From a virus (taxonomy: Duplodnaviria; Heunggongvirae; Uroviricota; Caudoviricetes): 30,189 nt of DNA. Both the position numbers and the translations under genes were made by a program. Position 1 is the stretch's first letter, and every line of letters starts with the position of its first letter. The notes below the pieces were generated by a model that did no database searches, had not been told where the DNA came from, and worked only from the letters and a program-made list of their open reading frames with translations. This document shows positions 1 to 18,595 of this stretch, piece by piece. The stretch lies in the IMG/VR virus record IMGVR_UViG_2663762810_000004, positions 1 through 30,189 of that record; one strand, 5' to 3'.

Positions 1-1128
1 TTAAGAGGGTATTTTTTGCCATTCTTTACCTCTGTCATCATGATATTTATCTGTTTGATGCTGGGTTTTATGACCCAGCAATTTTTGTGTATCAATTCCC
101 TGGTCTTTGTAAAGACGTTCAGACAATGATCTTTGCTCATGGAATGTAGCGGGTGTTCCATCTCCCCATTTAATACAAGCCTTATCCCTCGCCTTACTGA
201 AATTCATCGTTAATGTGTTCGATTTAACTTGTGCGCCTCGTTTAGCCTGTGATGTAGCTCGGAAAAAGTGAATCAGATAGGGGCTAACTGCATAATCTCG
301 ACAGCGCGCAACGACGTCACGTAAACTCCAGTTAATCGCATTGAGGCGAAGAGAAAGAGGTATAGCAATTTTGCTGCCGGTTTTTTCCTGTTCGATATGC
401 AGATGATCATCCCAGATATCGCTAAATTTCATTTTGGATATGTCACCAAGACGTTGCCCAGTCACAAGGGCAAGCAGCATTGCATTTCCCATATATTGAT
501 GTTTCTTATCTGCGATATCGAAAATCTTCAGCCACTCTTCGAGACTAAGTCGTTGTCTGGTAATCTTGCGCCTGGGCTGTTTAGTAGCAAGGGCAGGGTT
601 GTGACCAGGCGGCACTTCACCGTAGTGTTGGGCCTCTTTGAAAACATCGATCAGTACTGAACGAACAACTTGTGCCATTCTTGGTTGACCTGCAGATAGA
701 TACTCTTCAAGAATTTGAGCAATATCCCTGACATCAACAGAAGATATGAGCTTCATTCCCGCACGTTCCTTAAGAAGTGCAACTGGCTTGGCTTTTTGTT
801 TATACGTATTCTCCTTGATATCACCTGAAGCGAATCTTTCCTCCTGAATTTTCCAGTACCGCTCAAGCCAGGTAACAGTGGTAATTGACTTACCCTTGCC
901 GGTAGCAATTCGATCGCTTATAGCCAGTACCTGTCTTGAACGCTGCTCAGCAAGTCTTGCGTTTGCCTCAGTAGCAATTGCTTTAGCCTCAACTTCATCA
1001 GTACCTAGGCTGTGAAATTTCCCCGTTACAGGATGCTTGTACCTCCAATACACTTTATTGACCTTACGACTGTATAGTGGATAGAGGTTAGGTATTGATA
1101 CATTATTTTTACGTGGTCTCGCAGCCAT
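1..1128 (-). CDS. int: Tyrosine recombinase / phage integrase (lambda Int family). The ORF track extends to 1206, but the likely start is the internal Met (MAARPRK) at 1126-1128.
   Basis: Translation aligns along its length with the recalled lambda Int sequence, including the C-terminal catalytic region (HEQRSLSERLY ... LLGHK). It sits at the prophage edge, overlapping the xis 3' end. Confidence 0.9.
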   Translation of the reverse strand: MAARPRKNNVSIPNLYPLYSRKVNKVYWRYKHPVTGKFHSLGTDEVEAKAIATEANARLAEQRSRQVLAISDRIATGKGKSITTVTWLERYWKIQEERFASGDIKENTYKQKAKPVALLKERAGMKLISSVDVRDIAQILEEYLSAGQPRMAQVVRSVLIDVFKEAQHYGEVPPGHNPALATKQPRRKITRQRLSLEEWLKIFDIADKKHQYMGNAMLLALVTGQRLGDISKMKFSDIWDDHLHIEQEKTGSKIAIPLSLRLNAINWSLRDVVARCRDYAVSPYLIHFFRATSQAKRGAQVKSNTLTMNFSKARDKACIKWGDGTPATFHEQRSLSERLYKDQGIDTQKLLGHKTQHQTDKYHDDRGKEWQKIPS

Positions 1129-1354
1129 CGCTGAGGATCCTTTGCAATTTTGGTGAATCAGATTTCTTGATAACCGGCGCAGCAAGTTCTCCAACCAATT
1201 CCGCATCCTCCCTAACTCTCCAGAGCCTACCTTGCTTCATTGCTGGTGGAGAAAAGAGATTTTGCTTAGCGTAACGGCGCAATGTCGAGACGCTAGGTGG
1301 ATTACTTCTGTATTTATCGGTTGCCCATTCTTCAAGAGTTAACATCTGAATCAT
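1109..1354 (-). CDS. xis: Excisionase (Xis-like small DNA-binding protein)
   Basis: 81 aa ORF immediately upstream of and overlapping int. The LTLEEWA...STLRRYAK...GRLWRV pattern is typical of phage excisionase/AlpA-type HTH proteins. Confidence 0.75.
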   Translation of the reverse strand: MIQMLTLEEWATDKYRSNPPSVSTLRRYAKQNLFSPPAMKQGRLWRVREDAELVGELAAPVIKKSDSPKLQRILSDGCETT

Positions 1355-1399
1355 GCGTTATTCTCCATTTAATAACCCGGCTGCACCCGGCATACGTCA

Positions 1400-1702
1400 T
1401 TATAAATTATCGCTGGTTAGCTTTGGTGGAACAGCATAGAGAGGCCCAGGTGAGACATCAAAACGGCGCCAGCGTATATTACAGGTTCTCTCTTCACCTT
1501 TTTTGTGCCAGGCAACGACATCTGCCACTGGCTCGGCGTTCCTACCTGCCAACACCTCATCTACTACCTTCAACATATCCGCGAGAATGTAAGCTCTGTT
1601 CCCGCCGTTTGAGTACTGGGTATCATGCAGTAGGTGTTCACGTATCTGGTGTAGGCGATCGAGTGATACAGAACCGTTCGCCGGGTGGTTGTTAGTTGTC
1701 AT
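1400..1702 (-). CDS. Hypothetical prophage early protein
   Basis: 100 aa ORF in the leftward operon; its start overlaps the stop of the upstream ORF (coupled arrangement). No family recognised. Confidence 0.55.
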   Translation of the reverse strand: MTTNNHPANGSVSLDRLHQIREHLLHDTQYSNGGNRAYILADMLKVVDEVLAGRNAEPVADVVAWHKKGEERTCNIRWRRFDVSPGPLYAVPPKLTSDNL

Positions 1703-2028
1703 GCTGCCCCCCTACGTTGATGGCCCAGTGCGTGACGCGCTTCTATCGGGTCCTCTTCTTCGTATTCACCATTGACGCTTTTCACCATCGCCACGCAGCA
1801 TTCGTTGCAGCACCGATAGGACATAAGTTCGCCGTCGAATTTCCACGCCGTACTACGGTGAATTTCATCCTTTAAAATTACGCCAGCGCAAATGTGGCAT
1901 TTGTATTCACCTCGAGAGGTAACGATTTTGTTCGATAGTTCTGTATCGCATGGCGTACCGAAATCACCTTCGAAAAGATCAAAGTCCAGTGCGTCGTCTA
2001 AATCCTGTTTGTTGAGTGAGTTAGTCAT
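1699..2028 (-). CDS. Hypothetical Cys-rich small protein, possibly zinc-binding. Start taken at the internal Met (MTNSLNK) at 2026-2028.
   Basis: Multiple CxxC-like cysteine pairs (CHIC ... CCNECC). The ATG at 2026-2028 overlaps the TAA stop (2021-2023) of the upstream gene. Confidence 0.55.
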   Translation of the reverse strand: MTNSLNKQDLDDALDFDLFEGDFGTPCDTELSNKIVTSRGEYKCHICAGVILKDEIHRSTAWKFDGELMSYRCCNECCVAMVKSVNGEYEEEDPIEARHALGHQRRGAA

Positions 2029-2365
2029 TCCAGGCCTCCAGCTCATTCTGAATCTCTTCGTCGATTTCGTCATTGGTGGCGTCTTCGTTCAGATAGGCGT
2101 GCGCCTCTTTGAAATACTTGTCGCGGCGTTCGTCATACCAGGCAGAGAACTCAGGCGACCAGGCATGGGTATGTCCGAAAAAATCGACTCTGGCGTTATC
2201 TTCTGCGAGACGCTCAACCATGCAGTAAGCTGTGATCAAACCGCATTCACGGATGTACCCACGCAGGTCGCGCTTGCGCCAGTACGGGCTATATTTCGAG
2301 TCGCAGCGGCTTTTAAATTCGACAGTCCAGCGACGGATGCAACGTGCGTTCAGTGATTTACTCAT
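2021..2365 (-). CDS. Hypothetical prophage early protein
   Basis: 114 aa ORF in the same leftward operon, with start/stop overlaps on both neighbours. Confidence 0.55.
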   Translation of the reverse strand: MSKSLNARCIRRWTVEFKSRCDSKYSPYWRKRDLRGYIRECGLITAYCMVERLAEDNARVDFFGHTHAWSPEFSAWYDERRDKYFKEAHAYLNEDATNDEIDEEIQNELEAWND

Positions 2366-2616
2366 TGAGTTGCTCCCTGTCTGGCTCTATTCAATAACTG
2401 GTTAAACATCATGGTTAGGCTGTTACTGCACCCAAATGGCATATCGTTAACACGGTATGTTGGAATGCCCTTGCGAACACCTGACTTCACGATCCGGCCG
2501 GTGCCATAGAGTTGCGATAATGCGCCAGCGACCGCGGGTGTCTTTTTGTTCATACCTTTGGCGATTTCACCGCTGGTGGTATTCGGATGAGCCTGGAGAT
2601 ATTCAAATACGGTCAT
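2362..2616 (-). CDS. Small hypothetical protein, possibly winged-helix DNA-binding
   Basis: 84 aa; the N-terminal segment (EYLQAHPNTTSGEIAKGM...) resembles wHTH regulators. Its start overlaps the stop of the upstream small ORF (ATGA). Confidence 0.55.
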   Translation of the reverse strand: MTVFEYLQAHPNTTSGEIAKGMNKKTPAVAGALSQLYGTGRIVKSGVRKGIPTYRVNDMPFGCSNSLTMMFNQLLNRARQGATQ

Positions 2617-2789
2617 GGCGTTTTACCTTTACGTTCCTGTTCCAGTTGCACCAGAGACTCTTTTAATGCTGCGAACGTAGCGTCCAGTCTGGTGGCAACT
2701 TCGCGCATAAGCGGTGCATGCTTTGGTGGCAGTTCAGCAACGGAGGCAAAAGCCTCCGTAACGAGTTCTTTTACCTTCATGCGGCGCAT
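2614..2789 (-). CDS. Small hypothetical protein (about 58 aa), below the ORF-track size cutoff
   Basis: Hand translation of the minus strand gives MRRMKVKELVTEAFASVAELPPKHAPLMREVATRLDATFAALKESLVQLEQERKGKTP. A GGAG lies about 9 nt upstream and the stop overlaps the next start (ATGA). Confidence 0.4.
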
Positions 2790-2832
2790 TGGCGCAGCTC
2801 CGCCAGTTCGTTAAAGCGTTGCGCACAGGGGG

Positions 2833-3270
2833 TTGCGCCTTCCGGATGAGAAGATCCGCTCTGTCATGAGGGAAAGCGACATAGTGCCTTCCCCGTCTGC
2901 AACCAGCCTCGTGCAGAAGAAAGCGAAGAAGATCCTCACGCTCTCTGTTGATCCGGAGTCTCCTGAATCTTTCATGCTCAGGCCAAAACGCCGCCGCTGG
3001 GTAAATGAGACATACACCCGCTGGGTTAAAACACAACCCTGTGAGTGTTGCCGACGGCCAGCAGATGATCCGCACCATATCGTAGGGCACGGTTTGGGTG
3101 GTACAGCAACAAAAGCCCATGACCTCTTCGTGATCCCTCTGTGCAGAGAGTGCCACGACGAGTTACACGCCGATGTACCGGCATTCGAGCAGAAGCATGG
3201 TACGCAGCTTGAGCTGCTACTGCGTTTTATGGATCGGGCGCTGGCGATCGGCGTAATTGCGAAAGCTTAA
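2833..3270 (+). CDS. HNH-like Cys/His zinc-binding protein (DUF968/YdfU-like or NinG-like) upstream of Q
   Basis: Motif PCECC...HHIVGHG...LCRECHDELH. Position immediately upstream of the Q-like gene matches the recalled ydfU-quuQ arrangement of the Qin prophage. Confidence 0.5.
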   Translation: MRLPDEKIRSVMRESDIVPSPSATSLVQKKAKKILTLSVDPESPESFMLRPKRRRWVNETYTRWVKTQPCECCRRPADDPHHIVGHGLGGTATKAHDLFVIPLCRECHDELHADVPAFEQKHGTQLELLLRFMDRALAIGVIAKA

Positions 3271-3981
3271 GTGTATGGAGCGCAAAGAAGCATGAATCAA
3301 CAAGACCTGAATTTTGTAAGAATAGAATTGCGCCGCGCGCTACCTGACCTCTCTGGGGGAACAAAAGGGCAGCTTGAGGCTTTCAGTGAACACCCACCAG
3401 CAGACAAAAATGCCACCCCGCGCCGTGGAATTCATCTCGTCGAACTCGAAGGAGAGAAGGGGCCTCGCTTTGTTAACTCGCTTTCCGCGCCATTGTATGT
3501 ATTGGAAACACGCAGCCGCTGCAGGCCAATGCCGCCGATAAAAGATGCGGAATTTGAGTCCGCGCCGTGGCGTAGGGCAGTGTCCGCGCTTAGTGGATAC
3601 CAGCAGGCCTGGTTGCGGTACTGCTACGGTTTTGACCTTAGCTATAAGCACCAGGTGATGATGTGTGAATACGTCTGGAAAACTTATCAGAAATGCCTGG
3701 GTGATAATTCCCTTCAGGAGCGCGTAGTAAAGAAACTGATTGGCCTGGTATGGCTGGCAGGGCAGGAAATTGCCGCAACCAGAAATAATGAAACCTATAA
3801 AGACTATGCTGGTGCAGCGTTGGCCCGCATGGTTAGCGTTGATCGTTCGACATGGTTGCGTGTCTATTCAGGGCACTGGGCTGGGTTAAAGGCCGCTTTT
3901 ACCCAGCTTGATGAATCTGCGTTGGCAATGGCTCTTGAATACTATGAGGAAGAAGAAGCCCTCAAAGTGGCAGAAATGTAA
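3271..3981 (+). CDS. Putative late-gene antitermination protein Q-like (QuuQ-type)
   Basis: 236 aa ORF placed between the nin-like gene and a tR'-like terminator ahead of the lysis genes. Family assignment is from gene context and recalled similarity only. Confidence 0.45.
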   Translation: MYGAQRSMNQQDLNFVRIELRRALPDLSGGTKGQLEAFSEHPPADKNATPRRGIHLVELEGEKGPRFVNSLSAPLYVLETRSRCRPMPPIKDAEFESAPWRRAVSALSGYQQAWLRYCYGFDLSYKHQVMMCEYVWKTYQKCLGDNSLQERVVKKLIGLVWLAGQEIAATRNNETYKDYAGAALARMVSVDRSTWLRVYSGHWAGLKAAFTQLDESALAMALEYYEEEEALKVAEM

Positions 3982-4075
3982 AGTAAATTTCACTATCTCC
4001 TTCAAACGCGCTTGCAAAATGCAACAAAATAAGCCATATTTAAAGCGTATTTGATATGTTGCCAAAGTTTTATAA

Positions 4076-4100
4076 ACCCGCCAATGAGCGGGTTTTTGCG
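4076..4100 (+). terminator. Rho-independent terminator (tR'-like) downstream of the Q-like gene
   Basis: AAACCCGC-caatga-GCGGGTTTTTGCG: an 8 bp GC-rich stem followed by a T-run. Confidence 0.6.
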
Positions 4101-4144
4101 TTATAATTCACCGATTTAAACCAATTGTTTTAAATAGGTGAAGT

Positions 4145-4996
4145 ATGAAAATAGATAATCCCGAAAATCCACTTGAACGAAACGATTTTTCGATGGATGA
4201 CTTCCATCACTACTTAAGGGAGTTTGATAAAGCTGTATGTGAAGCGAATGCTGTAAGTCAGGGGGTTGGTGTGCGAATGGCTGAGGCTTTTAAAGGGTGG
4301 TCTACATACATTTTTTCACGAATCTGCATTCATGCTTCAATAATGATTTCCAACGTACCAAAATCAAGATGGGCTAAGCGGGATTATGACTTTTGGGATT
4401 TTTCGGCGATTGCACCTCATGTAAGAGCGATTCTGGAAGCTGAGTTATTGTTTATGTATTTATCTGAGAATCCAGATTCAACTGAGGAGTGGTCAGCAAA
4501 GTTGAATGTCATGCACATGAATGATTGTGTAAAGAGAATTGAGTTATTTACATCTAGTGATAATACGAAAGCATTGGATTTTTATCATGAACAAAAAGAT
4601 ATAATAACTGAGAGACTTAATAACAACCCTGTTTTTTTATCCCTTGAACAAGGAACCAGAAAACGTTGCTTGACTGGAAAAGCGCTTATGATTCCAAATC
4701 GAGATGAGTTATTGGTTAAACTGGGAAAAGATCCAAAGTCATTTAAAATAATGTTCGATTTTTTATCTCATTATACGCATATACTACCTATGTCATATTA
4801 TAAAATGGAGCCAAACGGAAGAGGAACTGGTTGTTTTAACAACTATGACTTTGGCTATATGATTATGGGGATGATTATTTGTACTGAATCCTTGACTAAG
4901 TGTACAGATAGATTAGTAGAACTTTTTCCTGATGTTAGACGGTTGCGAAAAGGAACTAAATCAAAATTCACGTTAGGTCCTAAACCTACAAAATAA
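4145..4996 (+). CDS. AT-rich hypothetical cargo protein (283 aa)
   Basis: Long ORF in a distinctly AT-rich block between the Q terminator and the lysis cassette. No recognisable family. Confidence 0.6.
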   Translation: MKIDNPENPLERNDFSMDDFHHYLREFDKAVCEANAVSQGVGVRMAEAFKGWSTYIFSRICIHASIMISNVPKSRWAKRDYDFWDFSAIAPHVRAILEAELLFMYLSENPDSTEEWSAKLNVMHMNDCVKRIELFTSSDNTKALDFYHEQKDIITERLNNNPVFLSLEQGTRKRCLTGKALMIPNRDELLVKLGKDPKSFKIMFDFLSHYTHILPMSYYKMEPNGRGTGCFNNYDFGYMIMGMIICTESLTKCTDRLVELFPDVRRLRKGTKSKFTLGPKPTK

Positions 4997-5022
4997 CAAT
5001 GAGTCGCTTGCTGCTATTTTAA

Positions 5023-5050
5023 AGGCTTCCAAATGGAAGTCTTTTATAAT
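5023..5050 (+). terminator. Possible terminator after the 4145-4996 gene
   Basis: Imperfect hairpin AGGCTTCC-aaat-GGAAGTCT followed by a T-rich tract. Confidence 0.35.
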
Positions 5051-5214
5051 TTCAGGTTTCGCAAATTATACTTATCTTCACATTTTCATAATAGCGCATA
5101 AGCCAGCCCCCCCTCCATCAACCACAGCGCCATACGAACTATCGGAGGTGAGGCTAAATTAGTAATCGTTCTTACCTGCACAGGTGCATAAAAATCAGCC
5201 TAAAATGCGAGTTT

Positions 5215-5877
5215 TTATGAAGAGAGCAGCATGACTTTTTCTTTTGCGGGCGAAGGTGACTGCTCTTTCAAAGGGAAAATTATAAATGCTATAAATGCAG
5301 TAAATAATACTATGAAAGCTAGCACTGTAACTTTCCTTGAAGATGATAGGGCTTTGTTATATTCCTTGGCTATTTTGTTCGTTATATGGATCTTAGTGCT
5401 ATTTATTTCATCTTTTAGTATGGATAATTTATTTATAAATTCCTGTGTTTCTTCTCGAGAGTAAAGTTCTGAAGCATCTCTTGGGGTTTCATGTGGATGC
5501 CGAGTATAACCAAGTATTTGTGGTATTAAATTACCATGCGATTGAACTACAGATTCATATTTCTTATAGCAAGCATTATCAAAAAATCTCATTCTTATGC
5601 TAAGTTCTCTGAGTTTGTCAACGTCTAGAGAAACTTGTTCGTTGGCAATAATTAAATCTCCGCGGTTTAATGTATTCTTGTGTTGAAAAATTAGTAAAAG
5701 CCATTCTGTATTATTGTAAAGCTTTTCAAGATTGGCATGTATATCAAGTCCGAGTTTTTCATATGCGGATAATTTGACCTCTTTTTCCTTTGCAGAAAGA
5801 GAAGATGAATAAGCCAGTAATCCGCTTATTATGGCAACAATAAATGTTCCTATAATGGTTAAGGTATTCGAGTCCAT
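5215..5877 (-). CDS. AT-rich hypothetical membrane protein. Start taken at the internal Met (MDSNTLTII) at 5875-5877; the ORF track extends to 5934.
   Basis: Hydrophobic segments at both the N terminus (IIGTFIVAIISGLLAY) and C terminus (VLAFIVLFTAFIAFIIF). Convergent with the 4145-4996 gene. Confidence 0.5.
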   Translation of the reverse strand: MDSNTLTIIGTFIVAIISGLLAYSSSLSAKEKEVKLSAYEKLGLDIHANLEKLYNNTEWLLLIFQHKNTLNRGDLIIANEQVSLDVDKLRELSIRMRFFDNACYKKYESVVQSHGNLIPQILGYTRHPHETPRDASELYSREETQEFINKLSILKDEINSTKIHITNKIAKEYNKALSSSRKVTVLAFIVLFTAFIAFIIFPLKEQSPSPAKEKVMLLSS

Positions 5878-5984
5878 TGTATTCTTCAAAAGTTGGTCAA
5901 AAATATATTGTAATATTTTAATGTATAAAATCAATCATTTCCCCTCATTCTGAGAGGACTCACAGCAACAAAGAGGGGGGCTAA

Positions 5985-6371
5985 ATGTCCGATCCGATTT
6001 CCGGTTCTGGGATGGCTGGTGGTGTCCTGACGGGGGCCAGCGTCTATGGATTTCTGTCCGGAACCGATTACGGCGTGGTGTTTGGCGCATTTGCCGGGGC
6101 TGTATTTTACATTGCAACCGCAGCGGATCTAAGTGCAGCGCGCCGACTGGCATATTTTCTGGTGTCGTATATTGCGGGGATCCTTTGTTCCGGGCTGGTG
6201 GGTTCAAAGCTGGCTCAGGCTACCGGCTACAGTGATAAACCACTGGATGCCATTGGCGCCGTAATCGTTTCTGCTTTAGCCGTCAAAATCCTGACATTCC
6301 TGAATAATCAGGATGTCGGCTCGCTGGTGGCGCTGATAACGCGCCGGGGAGGTTCAGGTGGTACAAAATGA
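5985..6371 (+). CDS. Putative holin-like membrane protein
   Basis: 128 aa Gly/Ala-rich protein with several hydrophobic segments, directly upstream of the endolysin. SD-like GAGGGGGG lies upstream of the ATG. Confidence 0.5.
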   Translation: MSDPISGSGMAGGVLTGASVYGFLSGTDYGVVFGAFAGAVFYIATAADLSAARRLAYFLVSYIAGILCSGLVGSKLAQATGYSDKPLDAIGAVIVSALAVKILTFLNNQDVGSLVALITRRGGSGGTK

Positions 6372-6639
6372 CCCATCGGCAACTTTTAATGCATTGCTTT
6401 GTGCTGGGGTAGTGTTAACCCTGATGTTTTACCGTCGCGGCGACTCGCGACATCGACCGTGGATATCTCGCTTAGCGTGGCTGCTTACGGTCATCTACAG
6501 CGCCGTTCCGCTGGCGTATCTGTGCGGTATTTACCCGTACTCATCATGGGCCACTATCGGGGCCAACTTTATTTTCCTGTCCGTGCTGGTCGCCGTAAGA
6601 GGCAACGTGGCACGTCTGGTTGATCATCTGAGGCACTAA
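6358..6639 (+). CDS. Putative second holin/antiholin-like membrane protein
   Basis: 93 aa with 2-3 hydrophobic segments; overlaps the previous gene's end and abuts the endolysin start. Confidence 0.45.
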   Translation: MVQNDPSATFNALLCAGVVLTLMFYRRGDSRHRPWISRLAWLLTVIYSAVPLAYLCGIYPYSSWATIGANFIFLSVLVAVRGNVARLVDHLRH

Positions 6640-7253
6640 TGAACCAATCACAATTTCAGCAGGCGGCTGGTATCAGCGCCGGGCTTTCTGCGCGCTGGTT
6701 TCCGCACATTGACGCGGCAATGAAAGAGTTTGGCATTACAGCTACGAACGATCTGGCTATGTTCATCGCCCAGGTTGGGCATGAGTCTGCTGGCTTTACC
6801 TCGCTGGTGGAAAGCTTCAACTACTCGGTAGAGGGGCTGAAGAAAACCTTTGGTAAACGGCTTACTCCTTATCAGTGTGAAATGCTGGGTCGTGTCGATG
6901 GTAAGCAGGTGGCCCACCAGCCGCAAATAGCCAATCTGGTTTATGGTGACCGCATGGGGAATAACAGCCAGGGTGACGGCTGGAAATATCGCGGTCGCGG
7001 CCTGCTGCAAATCACGGGTCGTGAGAACTACACCAAATGCGGCACGGCGCTGAAACTTGACCTTATCAGTACGCCAGAATTGCTAACGCAAGAGCGACAT
7101 GCGGCTCGTTCGGCTGCGTGGTACTTCACGTTACGCGGTTGCCTGATGTATTCGGGTGACGTGGCACGCGTTACGCAGATTATTAACGGCGGACAGAACG
7201 GCATTAAAGACCGCCGTGAACGTTACGCCAAAGCTAAAGCTGCACTGGTGTGA
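6639..7253 (+). CDS. Endolysin, glycoside hydrolase family 19 (chitinase-like lysozyme)
   Basis: Contains the GH19 endolysin hallmark FIAQVGHESAGF and NYTKCG/LLQITGRENY motifs; sits between holin-like and spanin genes. Confidence 0.9.
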   Translation: MNQSQFQQAAGISAGLSARWFPHIDAAMKEFGITATNDLAMFIAQVGHESAGFTSLVESFNYSVEGLKKTFGKRLTPYQCEMLGRVDGKQVAHQPQIANLVYGDRMGNNSQGDGWKYRGRGLLQITGRENYTKCGTALKLDLISTPELLTQERHAARSAAWYFTLRGCLMYSGDVARVTQIINGGQNGIKDRRERYAKAKAALV

Positions 7254-7260
7254 GGTCAGT

Positions 7261-7530
7261 ATGGGGCTTGAAATGATTATCGGCCTGGTTGTTGCTGTGC
7301 TGGCTGCAATTGCAGGTGCTTTTGGGCTGGGCAAATCACGCGGTACCAGTATCGCTGAAACAAAAGCGGACCAACAACGCACTGAAGAACGTGCAATAGC
7401 TATTGAAGCGGTTGCAGAACGCCGGGTAGAAACAACAAAAGGAGCCAGGGATGTACAACAGACTGTTAACCATATGCCTGATGACGCTGCTGATCGCGAG
7501 CTGCGCAAAAACTGGACACGTAAGGATTGA
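7261..7530 (+). CDS. i-spanin (Rz-like). Start taken at the internal Met (MGLEMIIGL) at 7261; the ORF track begins at 7156.
   Basis: N-terminal TM helix (IIGLVVAVLAAIAGAF) followed by a charged helical region, immediately after the endolysin. Confidence 0.6.
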   Translation: MGLEMIIGLVVAVLAAIAGAFGLGKSRGTSIAETKADQQRTEERAIAIEAVAERRVETTKGARDVQQTVNHMPDDAADRELRKNWTRKD

Positions 7531-7672
7531 GGTTATTGACACCGGCTGCGATTGGGTAAAACCCATCTACGGCACTGCTCATGATTGGGAAGTGCTGGAC
7601 AGGCAGACCAAGAAAGACATTCTTATGCATAACAAAGTGTGGATGTCAAACTGTGGCTCTATAACTTATTGA
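7451..7672 (+). CDS. o-spanin (Rz1-like outer-membrane lipoprotein), overlapped type
   Basis: Signal peptide with lipobox LIASC. Begins in the +1 frame inside the i-spanin gene and extends beyond it. Confidence 0.6.
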   Translation: MYNRLLTICLMTLLIASCAKTGHVRIEVIDTGCDWVKPIYGTAHDWEVLDRQTKKDILMHNKVWMSNCGSITY

Positions 7673-8322
7673 TTTTGTTTTTTGTTGTCTACCATATCAG
7701 GCAATGTGAAGGCATATAGAAGAAATACTTCGGTGAAACCAATCATTTCTTGAGCATCTTCTTTTGAAAATTCTTCATCAGAATGAACTGCTCCATTGGA
7801 ATCGATTCGAACTATATGTGCCCATTCCCTCATTTGATCTGTAATCAGTCCCTTAGCATGCAACATAGAAATCCGTTTAACCAATTTTTCATCTTTTGAG
7901 TCATTTCCCAGTAACTCCCGTGTAGCAATGTCCAAGACTTTACGGCAAAGCATAACGGATGTGTCGAAACGACAGCGCCCTAAGTTGTCTTTTGCTTCTA
8001 TGAAAGCCATAGCAGCACGTGGCGGAGTGTGTTCGGGGGCGTTAAGGAGGGTGGGTTTCGGGATGATATCAATCAACTGGTACTCAGTATTTCCAGGAAT
8101 GATTACGTTTACATCATTATTTTGCCTAGATTTTGCACGAGGTAAATAACCACCGGGATTATTCATTTTTACAATAGCAATACCTGATTGAAAACAGCTT
8201 CGACAACAAAATGCAATATTAACTAAAGGCCCGGCGTTGATACGCAGTTCTGCCCATCCTTCAAGGACAGCATTTTCCCTCAGACAATGTGGGCAAGTGA
8301 TATCGAAAGTGAGAATTCGCAT
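7666..8322 (-). CDS. DUF4145-like protein with N-terminal Cys cluster (candidate abortive-infection/defence gene). Start taken at MRILTFD (8320-8322).
   Basis: C-terminal region (RKVLDIATRELLG...HAKGLITDQMREWAHIVRIDSNGAVH) matches the recalled DUF4145 helical signature. N-terminal CPHC...CCRSC suggests a zinc ribbon. Lies in the moron slot between lysis and packaging genes. Confidence 0.6.
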   Translation of the reverse strand: MRILTFDITCPHCLRENAVLEGWAELRINAGPLVNIAFCCRSCFQSGIAIVKMNNPGGYLPRAKSRQNNDVNVIIPGNTEYQLIDIIPKPTLLNAPEHTPPRAAMAFIEAKDNLGRCRFDTSVMLCRKVLDIATRELLGNDSKDEKLVKRISMLHAKGLITDQMREWAHIVRIDSNGAVHSDEEFSKEDAQEMIGFTEVFLLYAFTLPDMVDNKKQNQ

Positions 8323-9067
8323 GACTCTACTCCATACATTAAAAGAAATTGAAAATGAATTACACAATGCACAACGACCTGAGTCTACACTCCTTCAACG
8401 ATATGAAGTATCGAATGAGATTAAAAAAAAGGAGTTTGTAGTCGCTTTGATCGGTAAACTGATAGAATTGGACCGCCGTCTCTATGTCACATCATTGAAG
8501 CCTTAGTTTCAATTTTACCGATTTATCGCTTAAGGGGTAGGACTTCAACACTACTAAGTGAGCATTGCAGCAGGCATTCAGGGGAATGCTGTGACAGTAG
8601 TTAGCTAGGGTAAACCGTTTGCGCCTGGGGATTTTACTTTGCGACGGAAAATTAAAAAACTATATGATTTCTTATCCCACTAGGATGTCTGCGGACTACT
8701 ACTGACTGTTTAGGCTATTACGAGGGGCTCAAACTCAACGTCTGGCATCAACGCAGAACTGAAAAAGTCGCCATGAATGTGGTTACGGTATTTGGTGGGA
8801 TATAAACGTACCTTCATTTCTAAGCTTGATAATCACCTTTGTCCGAATTGCCTACGCGATAGTCATGTAGTTTTAGTCATAACCGTTTACCCTATTGATG
8901 TCAAGATAAATTGGATAACACTGATGAATCGAACCTCTAAATCCTTTGATGGGCCACTCATAGCTGACTGGTTCAAAAAAGTGTTATCAATGGTATGATA
9001 AGTTGAGATGAAAGGTGTAAATGAACTATAATAATTCAACAGTTAATCTGAGAAAAATGGATTATGT

Positions 9068-9337
9068 ATGTCGAATGTAAAAAAAATAGATGCTATAGTT
9101 CAAAATTTATTTGAATTCAGAGATGCTACAGGTGAACTTACGGATAAAAATATTGTTTTAATACAAAAAATCATAACGAACTTACCTGACTATGCTGGTA
9201 AGGATCCATATGAATTTTATTCATCATTTTCTGAAGATATTAATGAGTCGCTCAAAGCAATTGCCAATTATCATAAGGCACATGCTAAATACATTAATGC
9301 CCTCGATAAATTAGCAGAGCTTAGGTCGGAGGGGTAA
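9068..9337 (+). CDS. AT-rich hypothetical small protein (first gene of a two-gene cargo operon)
   Basis: 89 aa ORF in an AT-rich block; the next gene starts 3 nt after its stop. Confidence 0.5.
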   Translation: MSNVKKIDAIVQNLFEFRDATGELTDKNIVLIQKIITNLPDYAGKDPYEFYSSFSEDINESLKAIANYHKAHAKYINALDKLAELRSEG

Positions 9338-9339
9338 TA

Positions 9340-9717
9340 ATGGCTACGGAAGATATTCAGGCTTTGTTATCTAAAGTTAATGCGTTAAGATTTGAAGATA
9401 AAAGAATAGAGAAGGAAACAGGAGAGATTGAAAATGAAATTCAGGCTCAATTTCTTCGTGATGGTAAAACAAGGAGTACATTAACCATAACATTTATGAG
9501 AGGCTTTTTTGGTCTTATCGTTTTTTCTTTTATATTTGTGATAGTTTATAACTATTGCGCAGTGCAATGGGTACTTCAATTACAAAGCAAAGGGCTCATG
9601 GAGGCTTCTAAAAGTATCGCACTACTTGAGTTAGATAAGGTGTTATCTATTATGGTTAGTGCGTTAGGAACATCTCTTGGGTTTATAATTGGCTATTATT
9701 TTAAAGACAAAAAATAA
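9340..9717 (+). CDS. AT-rich hypothetical membrane protein (second gene of the two-gene cargo operon)
   Basis: N-terminal predicted coiled-coil (EDIQALLSKVNALRFEDKRIEKETGEIENEIQAQ) followed by a TM helix (FFGLIVFSFIFVIVYNY). Confidence 0.5.
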   Translation: MATEDIQALLSKVNALRFEDKRIEKETGEIENEIQAQFLRDGKTRSTLTITFMRGFFGLIVFSFIFVIVYNYCAVQWVLQLQSKGLMEASKSIALLELDKVLSIMVSALGTSLGFIIGYYFKDKK

Positions 9718-9790
9718 ATAATTTAATTTTACATTGCTATTTATGTTTTGCTTTTAAGATTTTTAACTTTCTAGATGTAGAGTTATTGTT

Positions 9791-9822
9791 AAAGCACTGG
9801 TATTTGCCAGTGCTTTTTTATT
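9791..9822 (+). terminator. Rho-independent terminator after the 9068-9717 operon
   Basis: AAAGCACTGG-tatttg-CCAGTGCTTTTTTATT: a perfect 10 bp stem plus T-run. Confidence 0.6.
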
Positions 9823-10217
9823 AAAATCCGCGGATTAATGACGGCAATCATGAATACTCCTCCAAAGACTGATCCAACGATACGGGTGTATAAGTCACAC
9901 TTGTTTAATCTGTGATTGATGGCACTATAATTTATGTTGCACAACATAAACTGCCGATGGAGGGAATTGAGTGCTGAGCATGTCAGACATAAGTGTGTTG
10001 TCGAAGGTCTCCTCAGGCATGGTTTCTGCATAACGTCGACACTTGAAAGCCTCCATAATGACAATAAAGTATAAGTATTATCATTATTAATTGTCACTTG
10101 CCGTTGCGACATGCTTGGGCGGCGACCGCCTAAGTTCTCTTTATAAATGAGAAGTTCCCGCTAGCGACCGTTTCTGATTCTTTTTTTCTACTAAGTTTGT
10201 ATCAAATAAACAGGATA

Positions 10218-10586
10218 ATGCCGATGCCAGCACGAGCAAAGCGTCCATGCCGGCACAAGGGCTGTGCGGCAGTTACCAACGATGCCAGTGGCTATTGTGA
10301 TCAACACCGACAGCGGCATGCTGGTGATGGCTGGCGTAACTATCAGGCAGGAAAGAGCAGGCAGGAACGTGGATATGGGCGGACCTGGGAAATTAAACGG
10401 GTGCGTATCCTTCAGCGTGATAAGTACCTGTGTCAGAACCATCGCCGGCAGAAGATTGCAAAAAAGGCGACCAGCGTTGACCACATCATTCCAAAAGCTC
10501 ATGGCGGTACTGATGACGATTTCAATCTTGAGTCGTTGTGCTGGGACTGCCACAGAGCGAAGACGGCAAGAGAGCGTATCCGATGA
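10218..10586 (+). CDS. Phage HNH endonuclease (packaging-associated). Start taken at MPMPARAK (10218).
   Basis: HNH motif (DHIIPKAHGGTDDDFNLESLCWDCH) with N-terminal Cys/His. Position upstream of terminase small subunit is typical of cos-packaging HK97-like modules. Confidence 0.8.
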   Translation: MPMPARAKRPCRHKGCAAVTNDASGYCDQHRQRHAGDGWRNYQAGKSRQERGYGRTWEIKRVRILQRDKYLCQNHRRQKIAKKATSVDHIIPKAHGGTDDDFNLESLCWDCHRAKTARERIR

Positions 10587-10921
10587 GTTAGACCCATTGC
10601 ACATATTTTGGTTCACGGCTCTATACAATAGCTAACTGCCCAAAATAATGGGGTGGTTCATCGCGCCGCGCCAACCTGCACTGCAGCTATTGTGGGCAGT
10701 CAGGGCATAACTCTAGTGCCTGTCCACATAATGAGAGCTGCGGTCGTCGGCGCAGCCTGAATGATGACTTCCATCTTGATTGATGCCCACACAGGCCAGG
10801 GGAAGGGGGGATCAAATCCCTGACCCCTTTCGCCTTCCAGGACTGCCGCCTGAAGGACATTTTTATACGCAAGAAATAAGGATCTTTTTTCCGGTAGGTT
10901 TTAACTATTAATAGAGGTGTT

Positions 10922-11356
10922 ATGGCTGGTGGAATTCGATCATCAGGCGGAGGGCGAAAGCCCGTTTTACCTTCAGGACAAAAAAGCAAACTGACCAGAA
11001 TCGCACCTCCCGCTGAGTTAATGGGGGAGAATGCAATAAGACTGTGGAAAACCCAAAGTAAAATTCTGATCGAAAGAGGCGTGTTTGAACTGGAGGATGC
11101 GCCCCTGCTTCTGGCTTACTGCAATGCCTTCCATTTAATGCTTGAAGCTGAAAAATTGCTCTCGTCAAGCCTGACGACCGAAAGTGAAATGGGGGGATTA
11201 AAGAAACATCCCGCCGTTAACATCAGAAATGATTCTGTTTCCCAGATAGCCCGTCTTGGCTCGCTTCTGGGGTTGGATCCACTCAGCCGAATTAGGATGC
11301 GTGGCAGTGGAAATGATCCGGACGACGACGGGAATGAATTTGATGAGTTTGACTGA
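10922..11356 (+). CDS. Terminase small subunit (P27-family-like)
   Basis: 144 aa ORF directly upstream of TerL with an acidic C terminus; family inferred from context and sequence character. Confidence 0.7.
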   Translation: MAGGIRSSGGGRKPVLPSGQKSKLTRIAPPAELMGENAIRLWKTQSKILIERGVFELEDAPLLLAYCNAFHLMLEAEKLLSSSLTTESEMGGLKKHPAVNIRNDSVSQIARLGSLLGLDPLSRIRMRGSGNDPDDDGNEFDEFD

Positions 11357-13077
11357 TGGCTACATATCCGAACGTCAATGCAGCGAACCAGTATGCAAGA
11401 GATGTTGTTGGCGGGAAGATCCTTGCTTGTCAGTTAACTGTGCTTGCCTGTCAAAGACACCTTGATGATTTGGAACGTGCGAAGGATCCTGCCTGGCCTT
11501 ACCGGTTTGATAAAAACAAGGCCGAGCGATTTTTGCGCTTTGCTCAGAAGATGCCTCATACGGCCGGTGAATGGGCCAGGAAGAAACTACGAATAGAATT
11601 TGAGCCCTGGCAAAAGTTTGCCCTTGGTGTGCCATTTGGATGGGTTAATAAGAAGTCCGGATTCCGGCGTTTTTCTGAAATATATATTGAGGTGCCCAGG
11701 AAAAATGGGAAATCCGCAATTGCAGCTGCCGTTGGTAATTATATGTTTTGCGCCGATGGTGAACATGGTGCAGAAGTGTACTGTGGCGCCACTACTGAAA
11801 AACAAGCCTGGAAAGTCTTCTCTCCCGCTCTACAAATGGTAAAAAAACTCCCGGCATTGCGACAAAAATACTCAGTCAAACCCTGGGCGAAGAAAATGAC
11901 CCGTCCGGATGGCTCTGTTTTTGCGCCAGTCATCGGCGATCCTGGTGACGGCGATTCCCCTTCATGTGCAATTATTGATGAATATCACGAGCATCAGACT
12001 GATGCACTTTATACAACGATGACTACCGGGATGGGGGCAAGGGAGCAGCCTGTTACTCTGATTATTACTACAGCGGGTTATGACATTACTTCGCCCTGTT
12101 ACGAGAAGCGTGTGCAGATAGTGGAAATTCTCCGCCGTAACCGGACAGGAGAAGAAAACGAGACAATATTTGGCATTATATACGGTCTGGATGACGATGA
12201 TGACTGGACCAGGCCCGAAGCGCTGATTAAAGCAAATCCCAACTTTGGTGTTTCTGTTAAAGAGCATTTTCTTCGGGCGAAGCAGTTACTGGGAATATCC
12301 AATCCCAGCCAGACTAACAAAATTCTGACCAAGCACTTTAACCGGTGGGTAAGTGCAAAAACGGTTTTTTATGACCTGCAAAGATGGATGGCTGCTGCGG
12401 ATAAAAACCTTAAATTATCTGATTTTGTTGATGAGGATTGCTGGCTGGGTATTGATCTGGCCTCGAAAGTAGACCTGAATGCCGTAGTGCCAGTGTTCAG
12501 GAGAGAGGTTGCTGGTATAACCCATTTTTACTGTGTGGGGCCGCTGTTCTGGGCGCCTGAAGATACAATTTATTCACCAGATCCCACGCTGAAAACCATT
12601 TCTGAACGTTACCAGTCATTTGTGAAACAGGGGGTATTGATACCTACTGAAGGGGCTGAGGTGGATTATCGGTTAATTTTTGAGTCAATTCTTCAGTTAC
12701 GCCAGCAGGTTAAAATTGTCCAGTGCCCGATAGATCCTTACGGGGCAACATCATTGCGCCATCTGCTTGAAGAGGAGGGGCTGGAATCCGTTGAGATCAG
12801 GCAAAATTTTACACATATGAGTGATCCAATGCGTGAAATTGAGGCGGCGCTGGCATCAGGACGCTTTCATCATGACGGTAACCCTATCATGAACTGGTGC
12901 ATCCAGAATGTTATAGGGCGTTACTTACCAGGAAGCGATGACATTGTTCGCCCAGGGAAGGAGAGAAAGCAAAACAAAATAGATGGCGCGGTAGGACTAA
13001 TGATGGGAGTCGGGCGAGCCATGCTGAACGGAACTGTCAGTAAATCGGCTTATGATGAGGAAGATATTACATGTTGA
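11356..13077 (+). CDS. Terminase large subunit
   Basis: 573 aa with Walker A-like VPRKNGKS and Walker B-like AIIDEYHE; Terminase_1-type architecture. Confidence 0.9.
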   Translation: MATYPNVNAANQYARDVVGGKILACQLTVLACQRHLDDLERAKDPAWPYRFDKNKAERFLRFAQKMPHTAGEWARKKLRIEFEPWQKFALGVPFGWVNKKSGFRRFSEIYIEVPRKNGKSAIAAAVGNYMFCADGEHGAEVYCGATTEKQAWKVFSPALQMVKKLPALRQKYSVKPWAKKMTRPDGSVFAPVIGDPGDGDSPSCAIIDEYHEHQTDALYTTMTTGMGAREQPVTLIITTAGYDITSPCYEKRVQIVEILRRNRTGEENETIFGIIYGLDDDDDWTRPEALIKANPNFGVSVKEHFLRAKQLLGISNPSQTNKILTKHFNRWVSAKTVFYDLQRWMAAADKNLKLSDFVDEDCWLGIDLASKVDLNAVVPVFRREVAGITHFYCVGPLFWAPEDTIYSPDPTLKTISERYQSFVKQGVLIPTEGAEVDYRLIFESILQLRQQVKIVQCPIDPYGATSLRHLLEEEGLESVEIRQNFTHMSDPMREIEAALASGRFHHDGNPIMNWCIQNVIGRYLPGSDDIVRPGKERKQNKIDGAVGLMMGVGRAMLNGTVSKSAYDEEDITC

Positions 13078-13248
13078 TCACTCTTTTAAGTTTTATTATC
13101 GGCCTCGCCGGAGCCGGGTTAGTGTCTGCCGGTGCCTGGCTTATTTCACCTGCAGCCGGGCTTATTACTGGCGGTTCAATCTGCCTGCTGTGGTCATTTT
13201 TAATCGCGAAATCGATGTCCGCCAGCGTAATTAAATCAGGGGGTGAAT
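13072..13248 (+). CDS. Possible small membrane protein between terminase and portal (58 aa)
   Basis: Hand-read ORF MLITLLSFIIGLAGAGLVSAGAWLISPAAGLITGGSICLLWSFLIAKS...; its ATG overlaps the TerL stop and it ends just before the portal start. Could be a non-coding spacer. Confidence 0.3.
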
Positions 13249-13249
13249 A

Positions 13250-14509
13250 ATGTTCATTCCCCAGATGTTTCGGGGTAAATCTCAGTCTGGTGGTGGTTTC
13301 TGGCAGGCGATGCTGGGTGGGGTGAGTTCCAGCCAGAGCAAGGCGGGGATCATTATCACTCCTGAAACCGCACTGGCGTTATCGGCGGTCCGGGCATGCG
13401 TAACGCTTCTGGCAGAATCGGTGGCGCAGTTGCCGTGTGAACTTTACAGGCGAGGCGCTAACGGAGGCCGTGAACGGGCGACTGACCACCCTGTTTATGA
13501 TCTGATTCATTCCCAGCCCAACAAAAAAGACACCTCGTTTGAATACTTTGAGCAGCAACAGGGCCTGCTCGGGCTGGAGGGAAATTGCTACTCGATCATC
13601 GACAGGGACGGGAAAGGGTATCCCCGCGAATTAATCCCGGTTAATCCCAAAAAAGTCATCGTCCTGAAAGGGCCTGACGGGATGCCCTATTATGAACTCC
13701 CCGAAATTGGCGAAACGTTGCCAATGCGCATGATGCATCATGTGAAGGTTTTCTCGCTGGATGGTTATATCGGTAGCTCTCCGATCCAGACGAACGCAGA
13801 CGTTCTTGGGCTGAACCTGGCCGTTGAAGAGCATGCTTCTCAGGTTTTTCGCCGTGGCACAACGATGAGCGGCGTTATTGAGCGACCAAAGGAGGCTCCG
13901 ACAATAAAGAACCAGGAGAAGATTGACCAACTTCTTGCTAAATGGACGGATCGTTATTCCGGTATGCGTAATGCCTTTTCTGTCGCATTGCTTCAGGAAG
14001 GGATGAGCTACAAACAGCTATCTCAGGATAATGAGAAAGCGCAGCTGTTGCAGTCCCGCCAGTGGGGCGTGGAGGAAGTTTGCCGACTCTATAAAATCCC
14101 GCCTCATATGGTGCAGATGCTGGCGAAAGCCACAAATAACAACATTGAGCATCAGGGGCTGCAGTTCGTCATGTATACGCTTTTAGCCTGGCTGAAACGC
14201 CATGAAGGCGCATTAATGCGCGATCTGCTTTTACCCAGCGAGCGCGGTAGTCTGTACATTGAATTCAATGTATCCGGCCTGCTGCGCGGGGATCAGAAGT
14301 CACGCTATGAATCTTATGCGCTGGGCCGTCAGTGGGGCTGGTTATCGGTTAATGACATTCGCCGCATGGAGAACCTTCCTCCCATCGCCGGTGGGGACAA
14401 ATACCTGACGCCTCTGAATATGGTCGACAGTAAACAAATCTTACCTGGCAATAACGCGCCAACAGCTAAACAACTGGCAGAAATCGAAACTATTCTGGCC
14501 AGAGCCTGA
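13250..14509 (+). CDS. Phage portal protein (HK97-family-like)
   Basis: 419 aa ORF in the canonical position after TerL and before the prohead protease. Confidence 0.8.
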   Translation: MFIPQMFRGKSQSGGGFWQAMLGGVSSSQSKAGIIITPETALALSAVRACVTLLAESVAQLPCELYRRGANGGRERATDHPVYDLIHSQPNKKDTSFEYFEQQQGLLGLEGNCYSIIDRDGKGYPRELIPVNPKKVIVLKGPDGMPYYELPEIGETLPMRMMHHVKVFSLDGYIGSSPIQTNADVLGLNLAVEEHASQVFRRGTTMSGVIERPKEAPTIKNQEKIDQLLAKWTDRYSGMRNAFSVALLQEGMSYKQLSQDNEKAQLLQSRQWGVEEVCRLYKIPPHMVQMLAKATNNNIEHQGLQFVMYTLLAWLKRHEGALMRDLLLPSERGSLYIEFNVSGLLRGDQKSRYESYALGRQWGWLSVNDIRRMENLPPIAGGDKYLTPLNMVDSKQILPGNNAPTAKQLAEIETILARA

Positions 14510-14521
14510 TTATTCCCCGCT

Positions 14522-15466
14522 ATGCGGGCTGACCTGGTATATCTCATGACAACAAAATTACTTAACCTGCCGCACCTCGCAGAAATGGTCTTCGGTGTGC
14601 CTCATTACGCAACACAACAGACGATGGACGCCGTGAAGGCGGTATTGCTTCCCCGTATTCAGGGAACGGTGACGGATCCGGTCATTACGATGGCGCTAAA
14701 TCCGGATGATTCGCCATCCCCGGAAGAGCTTCAGCCAGCCGGTGGTATCGCGGTTATTCCCGTTCACGGGATTCTGGTCCCCCGGCGCGGGCAAATTACA
14801 GCGATGTGTACCGAACTGACAAGCTATGAGCGAATCCGCAGCCAGCTGCATTCGGCATTAAATGACCCATCCATCAGTGAAATCGTTCTGGATATTAATT
14901 CAGGCGGCGGTTTAGCGCCCGGGTGCAAAGAGCTGGCTGATTATATTTATCAGTCGCGAGAAATGAAACCGATCACCGCTATTGTGAACTTTAATGCCTT
15001 CTCTGCCGCGTATTTTATCGCGTCGGCCTGCAGCAAGATTGTCGCCAGTCAGACCAGTGGCGTTGGCTCTATCGGGGTGATCATGGAGCACCTTGATACG
15101 TCAAAGCTGGAAGAGATCATGGGCGTAAAATTTACTGCACTCTACCGGGGAGATAACAAGAATAATGGCACGTCACATGCCGCGTTGAGTGAATCGGCTC
15201 TGACGATGTTCAACAAAATGCTCGACGACATGTACGAGACATTTACCTCCTCAGTGGCTGAGTATCGTGGTCTTAAACAGCAGGCAGTGACAGATACCCA
15301 GGCGGGAATCTACTTCGGCGCTGATGCTATTTCTGCTGGTCTTGCTGATGAAGTTTCGGATCCTCAGTCTGCGATTAATGCCATTGCGGCAAAGTACAAA
15401 CAACCTTCACAAACCACTTCCATAAAGCTGCAGGCAGCCGCGATGGACCTGCAAACCAGAATGTAA
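14522..15466 (+). CDS. Prohead/head maturation protease, S49 (SppA/ClpP-like) family
   Basis: S49 peptidase-like core (ISEIVLDINSGGGLAPGCKELADYIY ... SGVGSIGVIMEH) between portal and capsid. Confidence 0.85.
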   Translation: MRADLVYLMTTKLLNLPHLAEMVFGVPHYATQQTMDAVKAVLLPRIQGTVTDPVITMALNPDDSPSPEELQPAGGIAVIPVHGILVPRRGQITAMCTELTSYERIRSQLHSALNDPSISEIVLDINSGGGLAPGCKELADYIYQSREMKPITAIVNFNAFSAAYFIASACSKIVASQTSGVGSIGVIMEHLDTSKLEEIMGVKFTALYRGDNKNNGTSHAALSESALTMFNKMLDDMYETFTSSVAEYRGLKQQAVTDTQAGIYFGADAISAGLADEVSDPQSAINAIAAKYKQPSQTTSIKLQAAAMDLQTRM

Positions 15467-15541
15467 CCCGGCGCTCACGCGTCATTACCACCAGAAAGCA
15501 GCCTTAGTGCTGTTTTTTTATACCTGAAAAGAGAGAAAACT

Positions 15542-16333
15542 ATGCCACAGATTGAAGAATTACGTCGTCAGCGTGCGGGTATTAATGAGCAGGTTCAGGC
15601 CCTGGCCACGATTGAAACTACCGGTGGAACGCTGACAGCGGAGCAGTTAACCGAATTTGCCAGCATGCAGCAGCAGTTCACGGATATCAGCGCCAAAATT
15701 GAGCGTCTGGAAGCGGCTGAACGTGCCGCGGCGCTTGTTGCCACACCGGTTAGAGGCACACAGCAGGCTCCTGGTGTCATCGTTAAGGCGGAGCCAAAGC
15801 AATATACCGGGGCAGGCATGACCCGTCTGGTGATGTCGATTGCAGCAGCGGAGGGTAACATCCAGGAGGCTGCAAAATTTGCGGCGGAAGAACTGAATGA
15901 CCCGTCTGTCTCGATGGCCATCAGCACTGCCGCTGCGTCAGGCGGCGTTCTTATTCCGCAAAACCTTCACAGCGAAGTGATTGAGCTACTGCGCGATCGT
16001 ACCATCGTTCGTAAGCTGGGCGCGCGCTCCATTCCGCTGCCGAACGGCAATATGGCGCTGCCGCGTCTGGCCGGTGGAGCGACGGCGAACTATACCGGGG
16101 AAGGTAAGGATGCGAAAACATCAGAAGCGCGCTTTGACGATGTGAAACTCACTGCGAAAACCATGATTGCGATGGTGCCCATCTCAAATCAGCTCATTGG
16201 CCGCGCAGGTTTTAACGTTGAACAACTGGTATTGCAGGATATTCTGACGGCGATTTCTGTTCGCGAAGATACCTGCACCGTCAGAGAGTACGTCGTTCAT
16301 TTTGACGGTCAGGCTGTTTTCTGCCACCGCTGA
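15542..16333 (+). pseudogene. Major capsid protein, truncated (N-terminal delta domain plus part of the capsid fold only)
   Basis: Coiled-coil delta-like N terminus and capsid-like middle region, but only 263 aa. The ORF ends in unrelated sequence and is followed about 130 bp later by tail gene L, with all intervening head-tail genes absent. Confidence 0.65.
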
Positions 16334-16462
16334 ACAACTGATCAACATTCCAGCCATCACTAATATTCTTAATTCCATGATTAATGTTCCTTTTCTGTCA
16401 ATGACATCAATATTCTTATGTGATGGAGAGGTCTTTTTTCAACCAGTTTTACAGAAAGGATT

Positions 16463-17164: not shown

Positions 17165-17174
17165 CGGTGACGTT

Positions 17175-18526: not shown

Positions 18527-18595
18527 CGCAGTTTCACAGCGTACCGATACTGACCGCCCTGATGGCGGTTTTGTCATTTATGGAGTGAGTAAAAC

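Follow-up and report, generated by a model that had tools for sequence, protein, structure and literature searches.

Comparison with described prophages

The cryptic prophage DLP12 of E. coli K-12 consists of int, xis and a few leftward genes, directly followed by nin-region genes, quuD (the Q gene), a lysis cassette and what is left of the terminase genes, and is not known to carry cI, cro or replication genes. The element analyzed here, contained in a 30,189-nucleotide stretch of a caudoviricete virus record (IMGVR_UViG_2663762810_000004, positions 1 to 30,189; hereafter the window), shows the same layout, with int/xis abutting nin-type genes, Q and lysis genes and with the immunity and replication genes absent. 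The orphan lysis operon of DLP12 is still expressed, its control involving a Q-type antiterminator, RpoE and Hha, and it influences the production of vesicles (PMC7918800). DLP12 differs from the window element in its att site (argU), its gene families and its IS insertions, and it is old and fixed in K-12, whereas the undeleted parent of the window element (100% identity) and intermediate alleles are still circulating.

A second point of comparison is the K-12 prophage e14, which we take to have kept its repressor/cro region and to have lost Q, lysis and head genes, a pattern of decay opposite to that of the window element. The two are alike in their site and mode of integration at icd, shared with phage 21. 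The int and xis genes of the window are homologous to intE/xisE, as annotated in E. coli genomes, at about 75% DNA identity, and the integrase has the same length (375 aa); a YmfL-type early gene found in the undeleted relatives of the window prophage is a further likeness to e14. On integration, e14 supplies a replacement icd 3' end and leaves an icd' duplicate at its other end (PMC6379469). More generally, grounded or domesticated prophages are described as losing induction functions first and then undergoing piecemeal deletion with some modules kept, and defects in att and in the recombinase have been stressed as the grounding step (PMC6379469). The window element departs from this scheme in that its recombination genes int and xis, like the two icd repeats, look intact, and its inactivating lesion is the loss of the immunity and replication region.

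Judged by gene content and order, the element reads as a DLP12-like cryptic lambdoid prophage at the e14 site: Int and Exc are encoded at the att end, Q is followed by lysis and morphogenesis genes, cI, cro and replication genes are missing, and the arrangement is deletion-derived. Loss of immunity and replication genes is a textbook path from prophage to cryptic prophage, and the case is ordinary in itself. Its modest value lies in resolution, since the parent (flanks at 100% identity), a likely intermediate and sister alleles are all public, so that the breakpoints, the 2–7 bp microhomologies and some of the order of events can be read directly.

Leftward genes and attachment site

The features of the window and the deletion alleles of its relatives are collected in Table 1. 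The open reading frame that covers int (1–1206, 401 aa) overextends the integrase N-terminus; identical public contigs call a protein of 375 aa at this place, beside a 205-aa ORF and icd, so that icd adjoins int in these contigs. The leftward ORFs between 1400 and 2789 gave matches to PHROGs 6675, 1687 and 12248, and the same set of small leftward genes is found in the same order in the undeleted relatives. At the other end of the element, the ORF at 28511–28663 reads as the C-terminus of Icd. Together these features point to integration in the icd 3' end, of the e14/phage 21 type. The flanking genes icd, rluE, nudJ and mnmA are up to 99.1% identical to E. coli, which places the host in the E. 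coli group, and the neighborhood at 28500–30189 is presumably the chromosome that lies downstream of e14 in K-12.

Table 1. Features of the window and early-region deletion alleles of the same prophage (window positions, except where prefixed REF).
Feature	Position	Strand	Remarks
Integrase, 375 aa	1-1128	-	Pfam Arm-DNA-bind_1 and Phage_integrase
Excisionase, 81 aa	1109-1354	-	Pfam PF07825 Exc, E 3e-12
100-aa ORF	1400-1702	-	Leftward delayed-early gene
109-aa ORF	1699-2028	-	Leftward delayed-early gene
114-aa ORF	2021-2365	-	Leftward delayed-early gene
84-aa winged-helix-like ORF	2362-2616	-	PHROG 1687 'MarR family transcription regulator', E 5e-25
58-aa ORF	2613-2789	-	Leftward delayed-early gene
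orf179 remnant	2777-2818	-	Last 13 codons and stop of a 179-aa early gene
Deletion junction	2813-2818		AAAGCG once here; in the undeleted relative, at either end of the missing segment
5'-truncated DUF968/HNH-like gene	2815-3270	+	Codons 181-331 of 331; candidate starts TTG 2833, ATG 2866
Q-type antiterminator, 229 aa	3292-3981	+	Intact; Pfam PF06323, E 4e-36; PHROG 304
Putative late promoter / Q-utilization site / terminator region	3982-4144	+	By lambdoid organization
283-aa ORF, weak DUF5677 match	4145-4996	+	AT-rich cargo-like ORF
239-aa ORF	5215-5934	-	AT-rich cargo-like ORF; no family match
Holin-family gene	5985-6371	+	Intact; lysis-cassette Pfam matches Phage_holin_8, Phage_holin_3_7
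Second holin-family gene	6358-6639	+	Intact; same lysis cassette
GH19 endolysin	6639-7253	+	Intact; Pfam Glyco_hydro_19
DUF4145 protein	7666-8367	-	AT-rich cargo-like ORF; PHROG 1305 'DNA binding protein'
Second deletion scar	16270/16271		Capsid gene breaks off after ~263 aa at a join just upstream of tail gene L; 2-bp overlap
Third deletion scar	18910/18911		2,240 bp of the gpJ (central tail fibre) region missing relative to L027
icd 3'-end duplicate (attR)	28500-28714	+	90.8% identity to the icd 3' end, REF 6750-6964
107-aa ORF, IraM-sized	28766-29089	-	Beyond attR
DUF1398 gene, YcgX-like	29785-30189	-	Beyond attR
2,900-bp allele	REF 12544-15443 deleted		2-bp junction overlap
3,529-bp allele	REF 11266-14794 deleted		3-bp junction overlap
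6,160-bp allele	REF 11229-17388 deleted		2-bp junction overlap
9,425-bp allele (L041)	REF 10502-19926 deleted		2-bp junction overlap
9,473-bp allele (window)	REF 10458-19930 deleted		6-bp junction overlap

The deletion junction

An earlier sequence-only reading of this DNA had proposed a deletion junction at 2780–2840, where a leftward int/xis operon lies close to rightward nin-like and Q genes. The close approach of the two operons was borne out, the ORF map giving 43 bp between the leftward 58-aa ORF, which reaches 2789, and the TTG at 2833 where the rightward ORF opens. The junction is also real, but it falls within two genes and not in an intergenic spacer, with the breakpoints at 2813–2818; likewise, the ORF at 2833 taken for the first rightward gene exists, but it is the 3' fragment of a DUF968 gene lying behind a TAA that the junction itself has made. 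When the DNA was compared with complete E. coli genomes and with phage records, the leftward homologies ended at 2818 in all matches and the rightward homology started at 2813. The site is very probably the scar of a deletion of about 9.5 kb that removed the immunity, replication and nin-type region of a lambda-like prophage, that is, a derived state.

Specifically, residues 167–179 of the orf179 product of L017 (one of the public loci, given here by their L numbers) matched window positions 2818–2780 at 100% identity in tblastn, and the complete gene is present in L008, L005, L009, L003 and L004. The right breakpoint lies in codon 180 of the DUF968/HNH-like gene, which in translation becomes TAA at 2812–2814, in frame with the remaining fragment. 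This fragment covers positions 30–171 of the 171 in the Pfam DUF968 profile (PF06147) and positions 189–334 of the 334 in PHROG 96; relatives carry the gene at its full 331 aa, and the window copy is not an intact family member. In an identical public contig (L007/L016) gene callers left the fragment uncalled. For annotation purposes, 2815–3270 is best treated as a pseudogene fragment, and neither immunity nor inducibility should be expected of the element. The repeat at the junction is 7 bp long (TAAAGCG, 2812–2818) when counted against the contig SRR29108465_115 (L041), discussed below.

The junction recurs in L007/L016/L035 and in five to six similar places, giving at least 6–7 contigs from different samples, some of them longer than 700 kb, and its presence in several independent assemblies means that it is not an assembly artefact. 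Prophage regions are repeat-rich and often misassembled, which might suggest an assembly error or a chimera of two prophages; with both flanks matching one contiguous parent at 100% and a closely related intermediate allele in existence (L041), the probability of such an origin is next to nil. The exact 24-nt junction pattern had no match among the GTDB species-representative genomes, and a 351-bp junction-spanning query gave no spanning match, only one-sided ones, in 5,426 complete RefSeq E. coli genomes. The lineage that carries the junction therefore lies outside those two sets.

Undeleted relatives and lost gene content

The contig ERZ1742005 NODE_55 (L008/L017/L036) is identical to the window on both flanks and holds 9,473 bp more between them: window 1–2818 corresponds to L008 12616–9799 and window 2813–3143 to L008 331–1, both at 100% identity. 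Alignment to intact relatives, which the sequence-only reading had put forward as the way to map the breakpoints, thus succeeded. The missing segment (REF 10458–19930) runs from inside orf179 to codon 180 of the 331-aa DUF968/HNH-like gene. According to the gene tables of L008, L017 and L036, it comprises the genes for DUF2303, YfdP, a 236-aa Peptidase_S24 (LexA-like) cI-type repressor and an 80-aa cro-like protein, small ORFs of 81 and 78 aa in the cII region, a 182-aa YmfL-like gene, a Phg_2220_C replication protein, Dam, RusA, an Ant-type antirepressor and the first 180 codons of DUF968. Judging by their expected position between cI and cro, the divergent early promoters and operators would also lie within the missing segment.

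This loss of content was further confirmed by tblastn of 12 early-region proteins of L017 against the 30-kb window (E ≤ 1e-3), in which the only matches were to the final 13 residues of orf179, to the C-terminal half of DUF968 and to Q; cI, cro, orf81, orf78, the YmfL-like protein, Rep, Dam, RusA, Ant, YfdP and DUF2303 gave no match in the window. Similarly, neither HTH_3 nor Peptidase_S24 was found among the 40 window ORFs scanned with Pfam. Since the window spans the prophage from int to its right end (the icd 3' duplicate), and the homologues are absent from it, the whole element lacks repressor, cro and replication genes, as had been claimed from the sequence.

More distant relatives with a full early region were found in E. 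coli FAM21845, E. coli Nissle 1917, Citrobacter murliniae and Citrobacter sp. Cu233. In FAM21845 and Nissle 1917 the leftward arm comprises int, xis, an exonuclease, small ORFs, the 84-aa, 58-aa and 179-aa ORFs, rdgC, a ClpX-type zinc-finger gene and a LexA-family repressor, and the rightward arm comprises cro, a YmfL-like gene, DUF4222, a replication gene, a methyltransferase, RusA, an antirepressor, DUF968 (~330 aa), Q, holins and a GH19 endolysin. That the compact form is the derived one follows from orf179 and DUF968 being fragments in the window and complete in all other relatives, including FAM21845, Nissle 1917 and the two Citrobacter. A compact arrangement shared by intact relatives would have told against a deletion, but both L008/L017 and the distant relatives hold the full early region, and the deletion reading is supported as essentially correct. 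In the phage collection, no close relative of the early-left region was found, the matches being patchy and at 70–80% only.

Late region and further scars

Rightward of the junction the window is nearly unchanged, positions 2813–13980 sharing 99.96% identity with the undeleted phage, and Q being 100% identical to its counterpart there. RNA folding predicted a GC-rich hairpin with an 8-bp stem at 4074–4095 followed by UUUUU, within the region where lambdoid organization would place the late promoter. After Q and the lysis cassette come TerS, TerL, portal and S49 protease genes (Pfam), in the order of a lambdoid prophage and on the same strand. Three AT-rich cargo-like ORFs lie within the late operon, all of them also present in the undeleted phage; PADLOC returned nothing significant for the cargo-like ORFs between Q and terminase or at the right end.

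Two further scars lie in the structural genes. In the first of these, window 4523–16271 corresponds to L023 1–11750 and window 16270–17366 to L023 19849–20945, a loss of about 8.1 kb relative to L023 that comprises head completion, tail tube, chaperone, tape measure, M, lom-like and sodC genes. The Pfam capsid profile is covered at positions 1–111 of 280 only, and the set is intact in L023. In the second, window 4522–18910 corresponds to L027 1–14389 and window 18911–22123 to L027 16630–19842; L027 already carries the capsid–L scar and has kept a 708-aa J remnant. This suggests that the late region has also decayed stepwise. With two scars in structural genes, the element would be unable to assemble particles by itself even with Q provided, and the missing early genes together with the truncated capsid gene suggest that it would not be inducible.

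Near the right end, a direct segmental duplication was observed (21871–22298 versus 25051–25449, and 22923–23477 versus 25893–26448), the duplicated pieces being the C-terminus of a 685-aa SASA/DUF6645 tail-fibre-like protein (84% identity) and a DUF1353 gene (95%). Between the copies lies a gene with an SdiA-regulated domain (23486–24370, minus strand), and no invertase was seen. Further right, Rfam identified a C4 antisense RNA (27454–27539, minus strand, 75 bits) and the Hfq-binding RNA isrK (27567–27643, minus strand, 79 bits), directly downstream of which is a Bro-N/P22_AR_C antirepressor-like ORF (26748–27407, minus strand). The whole module (26748–27643) resembles the immI module of P1 and the IsrK-type module of Gifsy-1. 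Kept at the right end despite the loss of the main immunity region, it could act on the repressors of co-resident phages.

It is extremely improbable that the compact arrangement is native, as in a satellite-like or minimal helper-dependent mobile element. Such an element might be expected from the retention of int, xis, Q, the lysis cassette, terminase and portal, and from a C4/IsrK RNA and antirepressor module that could act on a helper, but both genes at the junction are fragments, the contig that is 100% identical on both flanks holds the missing 9.5 kb, other relatives have the early region, and the capsid gene is truncated by a scar of its own. Moreover, neither a replication or primase gene nor a capsid-redirecting gene was found among the window ORFs. 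Set against PICIs and P4-like satellites, the element differs in lacking a replication module of its own and in carrying terminase, portal, protease and tail genes left over from a full phage. A prophage reduced by deletion is thus the reading retained here.

Immunity, replication and expression

Lacking cI, cro, the early promoters and the replication gene, the element would be expected neither to repress, nor to be induced, nor to replicate. With int and xis cut off from the leftward early promoter, excision should be rare. Similarly, Q has lost its rightward early promoter, and Q, the late-promoter region and the lysis cassette are predicted to be silent unless reached by read-through, by a host-dependent promoter or by a Q of matching specificity that a co-resident or superinfecting phage supplies in trans. 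As Q, the downstream region and the lysis genes are almost unchanged (99.96%), they could respond to such a Q or be expressed weakly under host control, as is reported for the lysis operon of DLP12 (PMC7918800). A crude consensus scan of 2300–4200 gave no sigma-70-like site, the same scan also missing the expected late promoter, and over 1–6100 promoter matches stood at background level, mostly in the AT-rich cargo genes. Read-through from icd was considered as a source of Q transcription and would be unlikely, given a terminator-like hairpin at 59–80 (plus strand) after the convergent upstream ORF and the 2.8 kb of untranslated antisense RNA that would have to be traversed.

The 84-aa winged-helix-like protein was considered as a remaining source of immunity, the sequence-only reading having named its gene (2362–2616) as an example of a small leftward ORF that might prove to be a functional repressor. 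Its match to a MarR-type PHROG would fit a regulator of this kind. An identical gene, however, is found at this position in phages equipped with an S24 cI and a cro of their own, and the protein has neither a Pfam match nor a PDB sequence match. No operator-like repeats or repeated palindromes occur near the junction or upstream of Q, and the early promoters that it would have to control are deleted. That the element is still immune through this protein is accordingly very improbable.

Formation of the scar

The contig SRR29108465_115 from Logan (L041) shares the right breakpoint of the window (REF 19925–19927), while its left breakpoint lies 44 bp further out in orf179; its deletion is of 9,425 bp, with a 2-bp overlap. 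L041 contains two copies of TAAAGCG, 48 bp apart, and dropping one repeat unit gives the exact sequence of the window. Apart from this, a single SNP in about 8 kb separates the window from L041. The scar thus probably arose in two steps, an argument from parsimony. The deletion would have been produced by RecA-independent illegitimate recombination or by replication slippage at very short repeats. In the first step, 9,425 bp would have been lost at a 2-bp overlap, giving the allele that survives in SRR29108465_115; in the second, a further 48 bp would have been lost by slippage between the TAAAGCG copies that the first step had brought close together.

In the intact parent type, AAAGCG occurs at either end of the missing segment, and a single deletion of 9,473 bp at this 6-bp repeat would yield an identical sequence. 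A microhomology of 6 bp, exceeding the 2–3 bp seen in the other alleles, is what illegitimate deletions typically show. In that case the SRR29108465 allele would be independent and would share the right breakpoint by chance, which requires two independent deletions ending 0–2 bp apart in a region of about 10 kb (roughly 1 in 1,000), and this in phage copies set apart by only one SNP over 8 kb. It would also leave to coincidence that a 7-bp direct repeat in L041 marks the exact limits of the 48-bp difference. A single step is for these reasons rather unlikely, and formation in two steps is preferred.

Allelic series of early-region deletions

The window junction is one of at least five early-region deletion alleles of the same prophage (Table 1). 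The core deleted in all of them is REF 12544–14794, which contains cI, cro, orf81 and about 1 kb upstream of cI, so that every deletion allele lacks cI, cro and the cI–cro intergenic region. The 2,900-bp and 3,529-bp alleles overlap without being nested, and at least two of the events are therefore independent; a single nested erosion series comprising all alleles is ruled out by this pair. Leaving the pair aside, each larger allele may have arisen independently or by enlargement of an earlier deletion.

The chromosomal flanks (7–9 kb) are identical among the hosts of the 2.9-kb, 3.5-kb and window alleles, and that of the 6.2-kb host differs by two SNPs. The host of the intact copy has a flank that is 1.8% different, with identical prophage arms (L035, L037, L039 and L005 compared with L036). 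Identical arms beside flanks diverged by 1.8% indicate that the phage recently entered, or was exchanged between, distinct host lineages before the deletions took place. An early-region deletion was present in 10 of 24 contigs anchored on Q and 11 of 24 anchored on int, these being the 24 longest contigs per look-up (by exact protein identity, near-identical places collapsed), so that the fractions are not population frequencies.

Such deletions may persist because they would remove the risk of lethal induction. Loss of cI with the early promoters kept would be lethal, which may explain why cI, cro and the region between them have been lost together in the surviving alleles; their joint absence from every allele fits selection against lethal induction. 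A more far-reaching proposal, which we regard as quite unlikely on present evidence, is that the allelic series reflects recurrent selection and forms a natural time series of prophage domestication, with Q, the lysis genes and the C4/IsrK-antirepressor module retained to serve the host or to interact with co-resident phages. If true, the deletions of 2.9, 3.5, 6.2 and 9.47 kb would trace domestication within one lineage of the E. coli group.

The undeleted relatives also differ from one another in the length of the replication gene (288 versus 310 aa), owing to a short internal repeat difference at REF 16381–16424 (loci L019, L021, L022 and L039), which could correspond to iteron-like repeats inside the gene.
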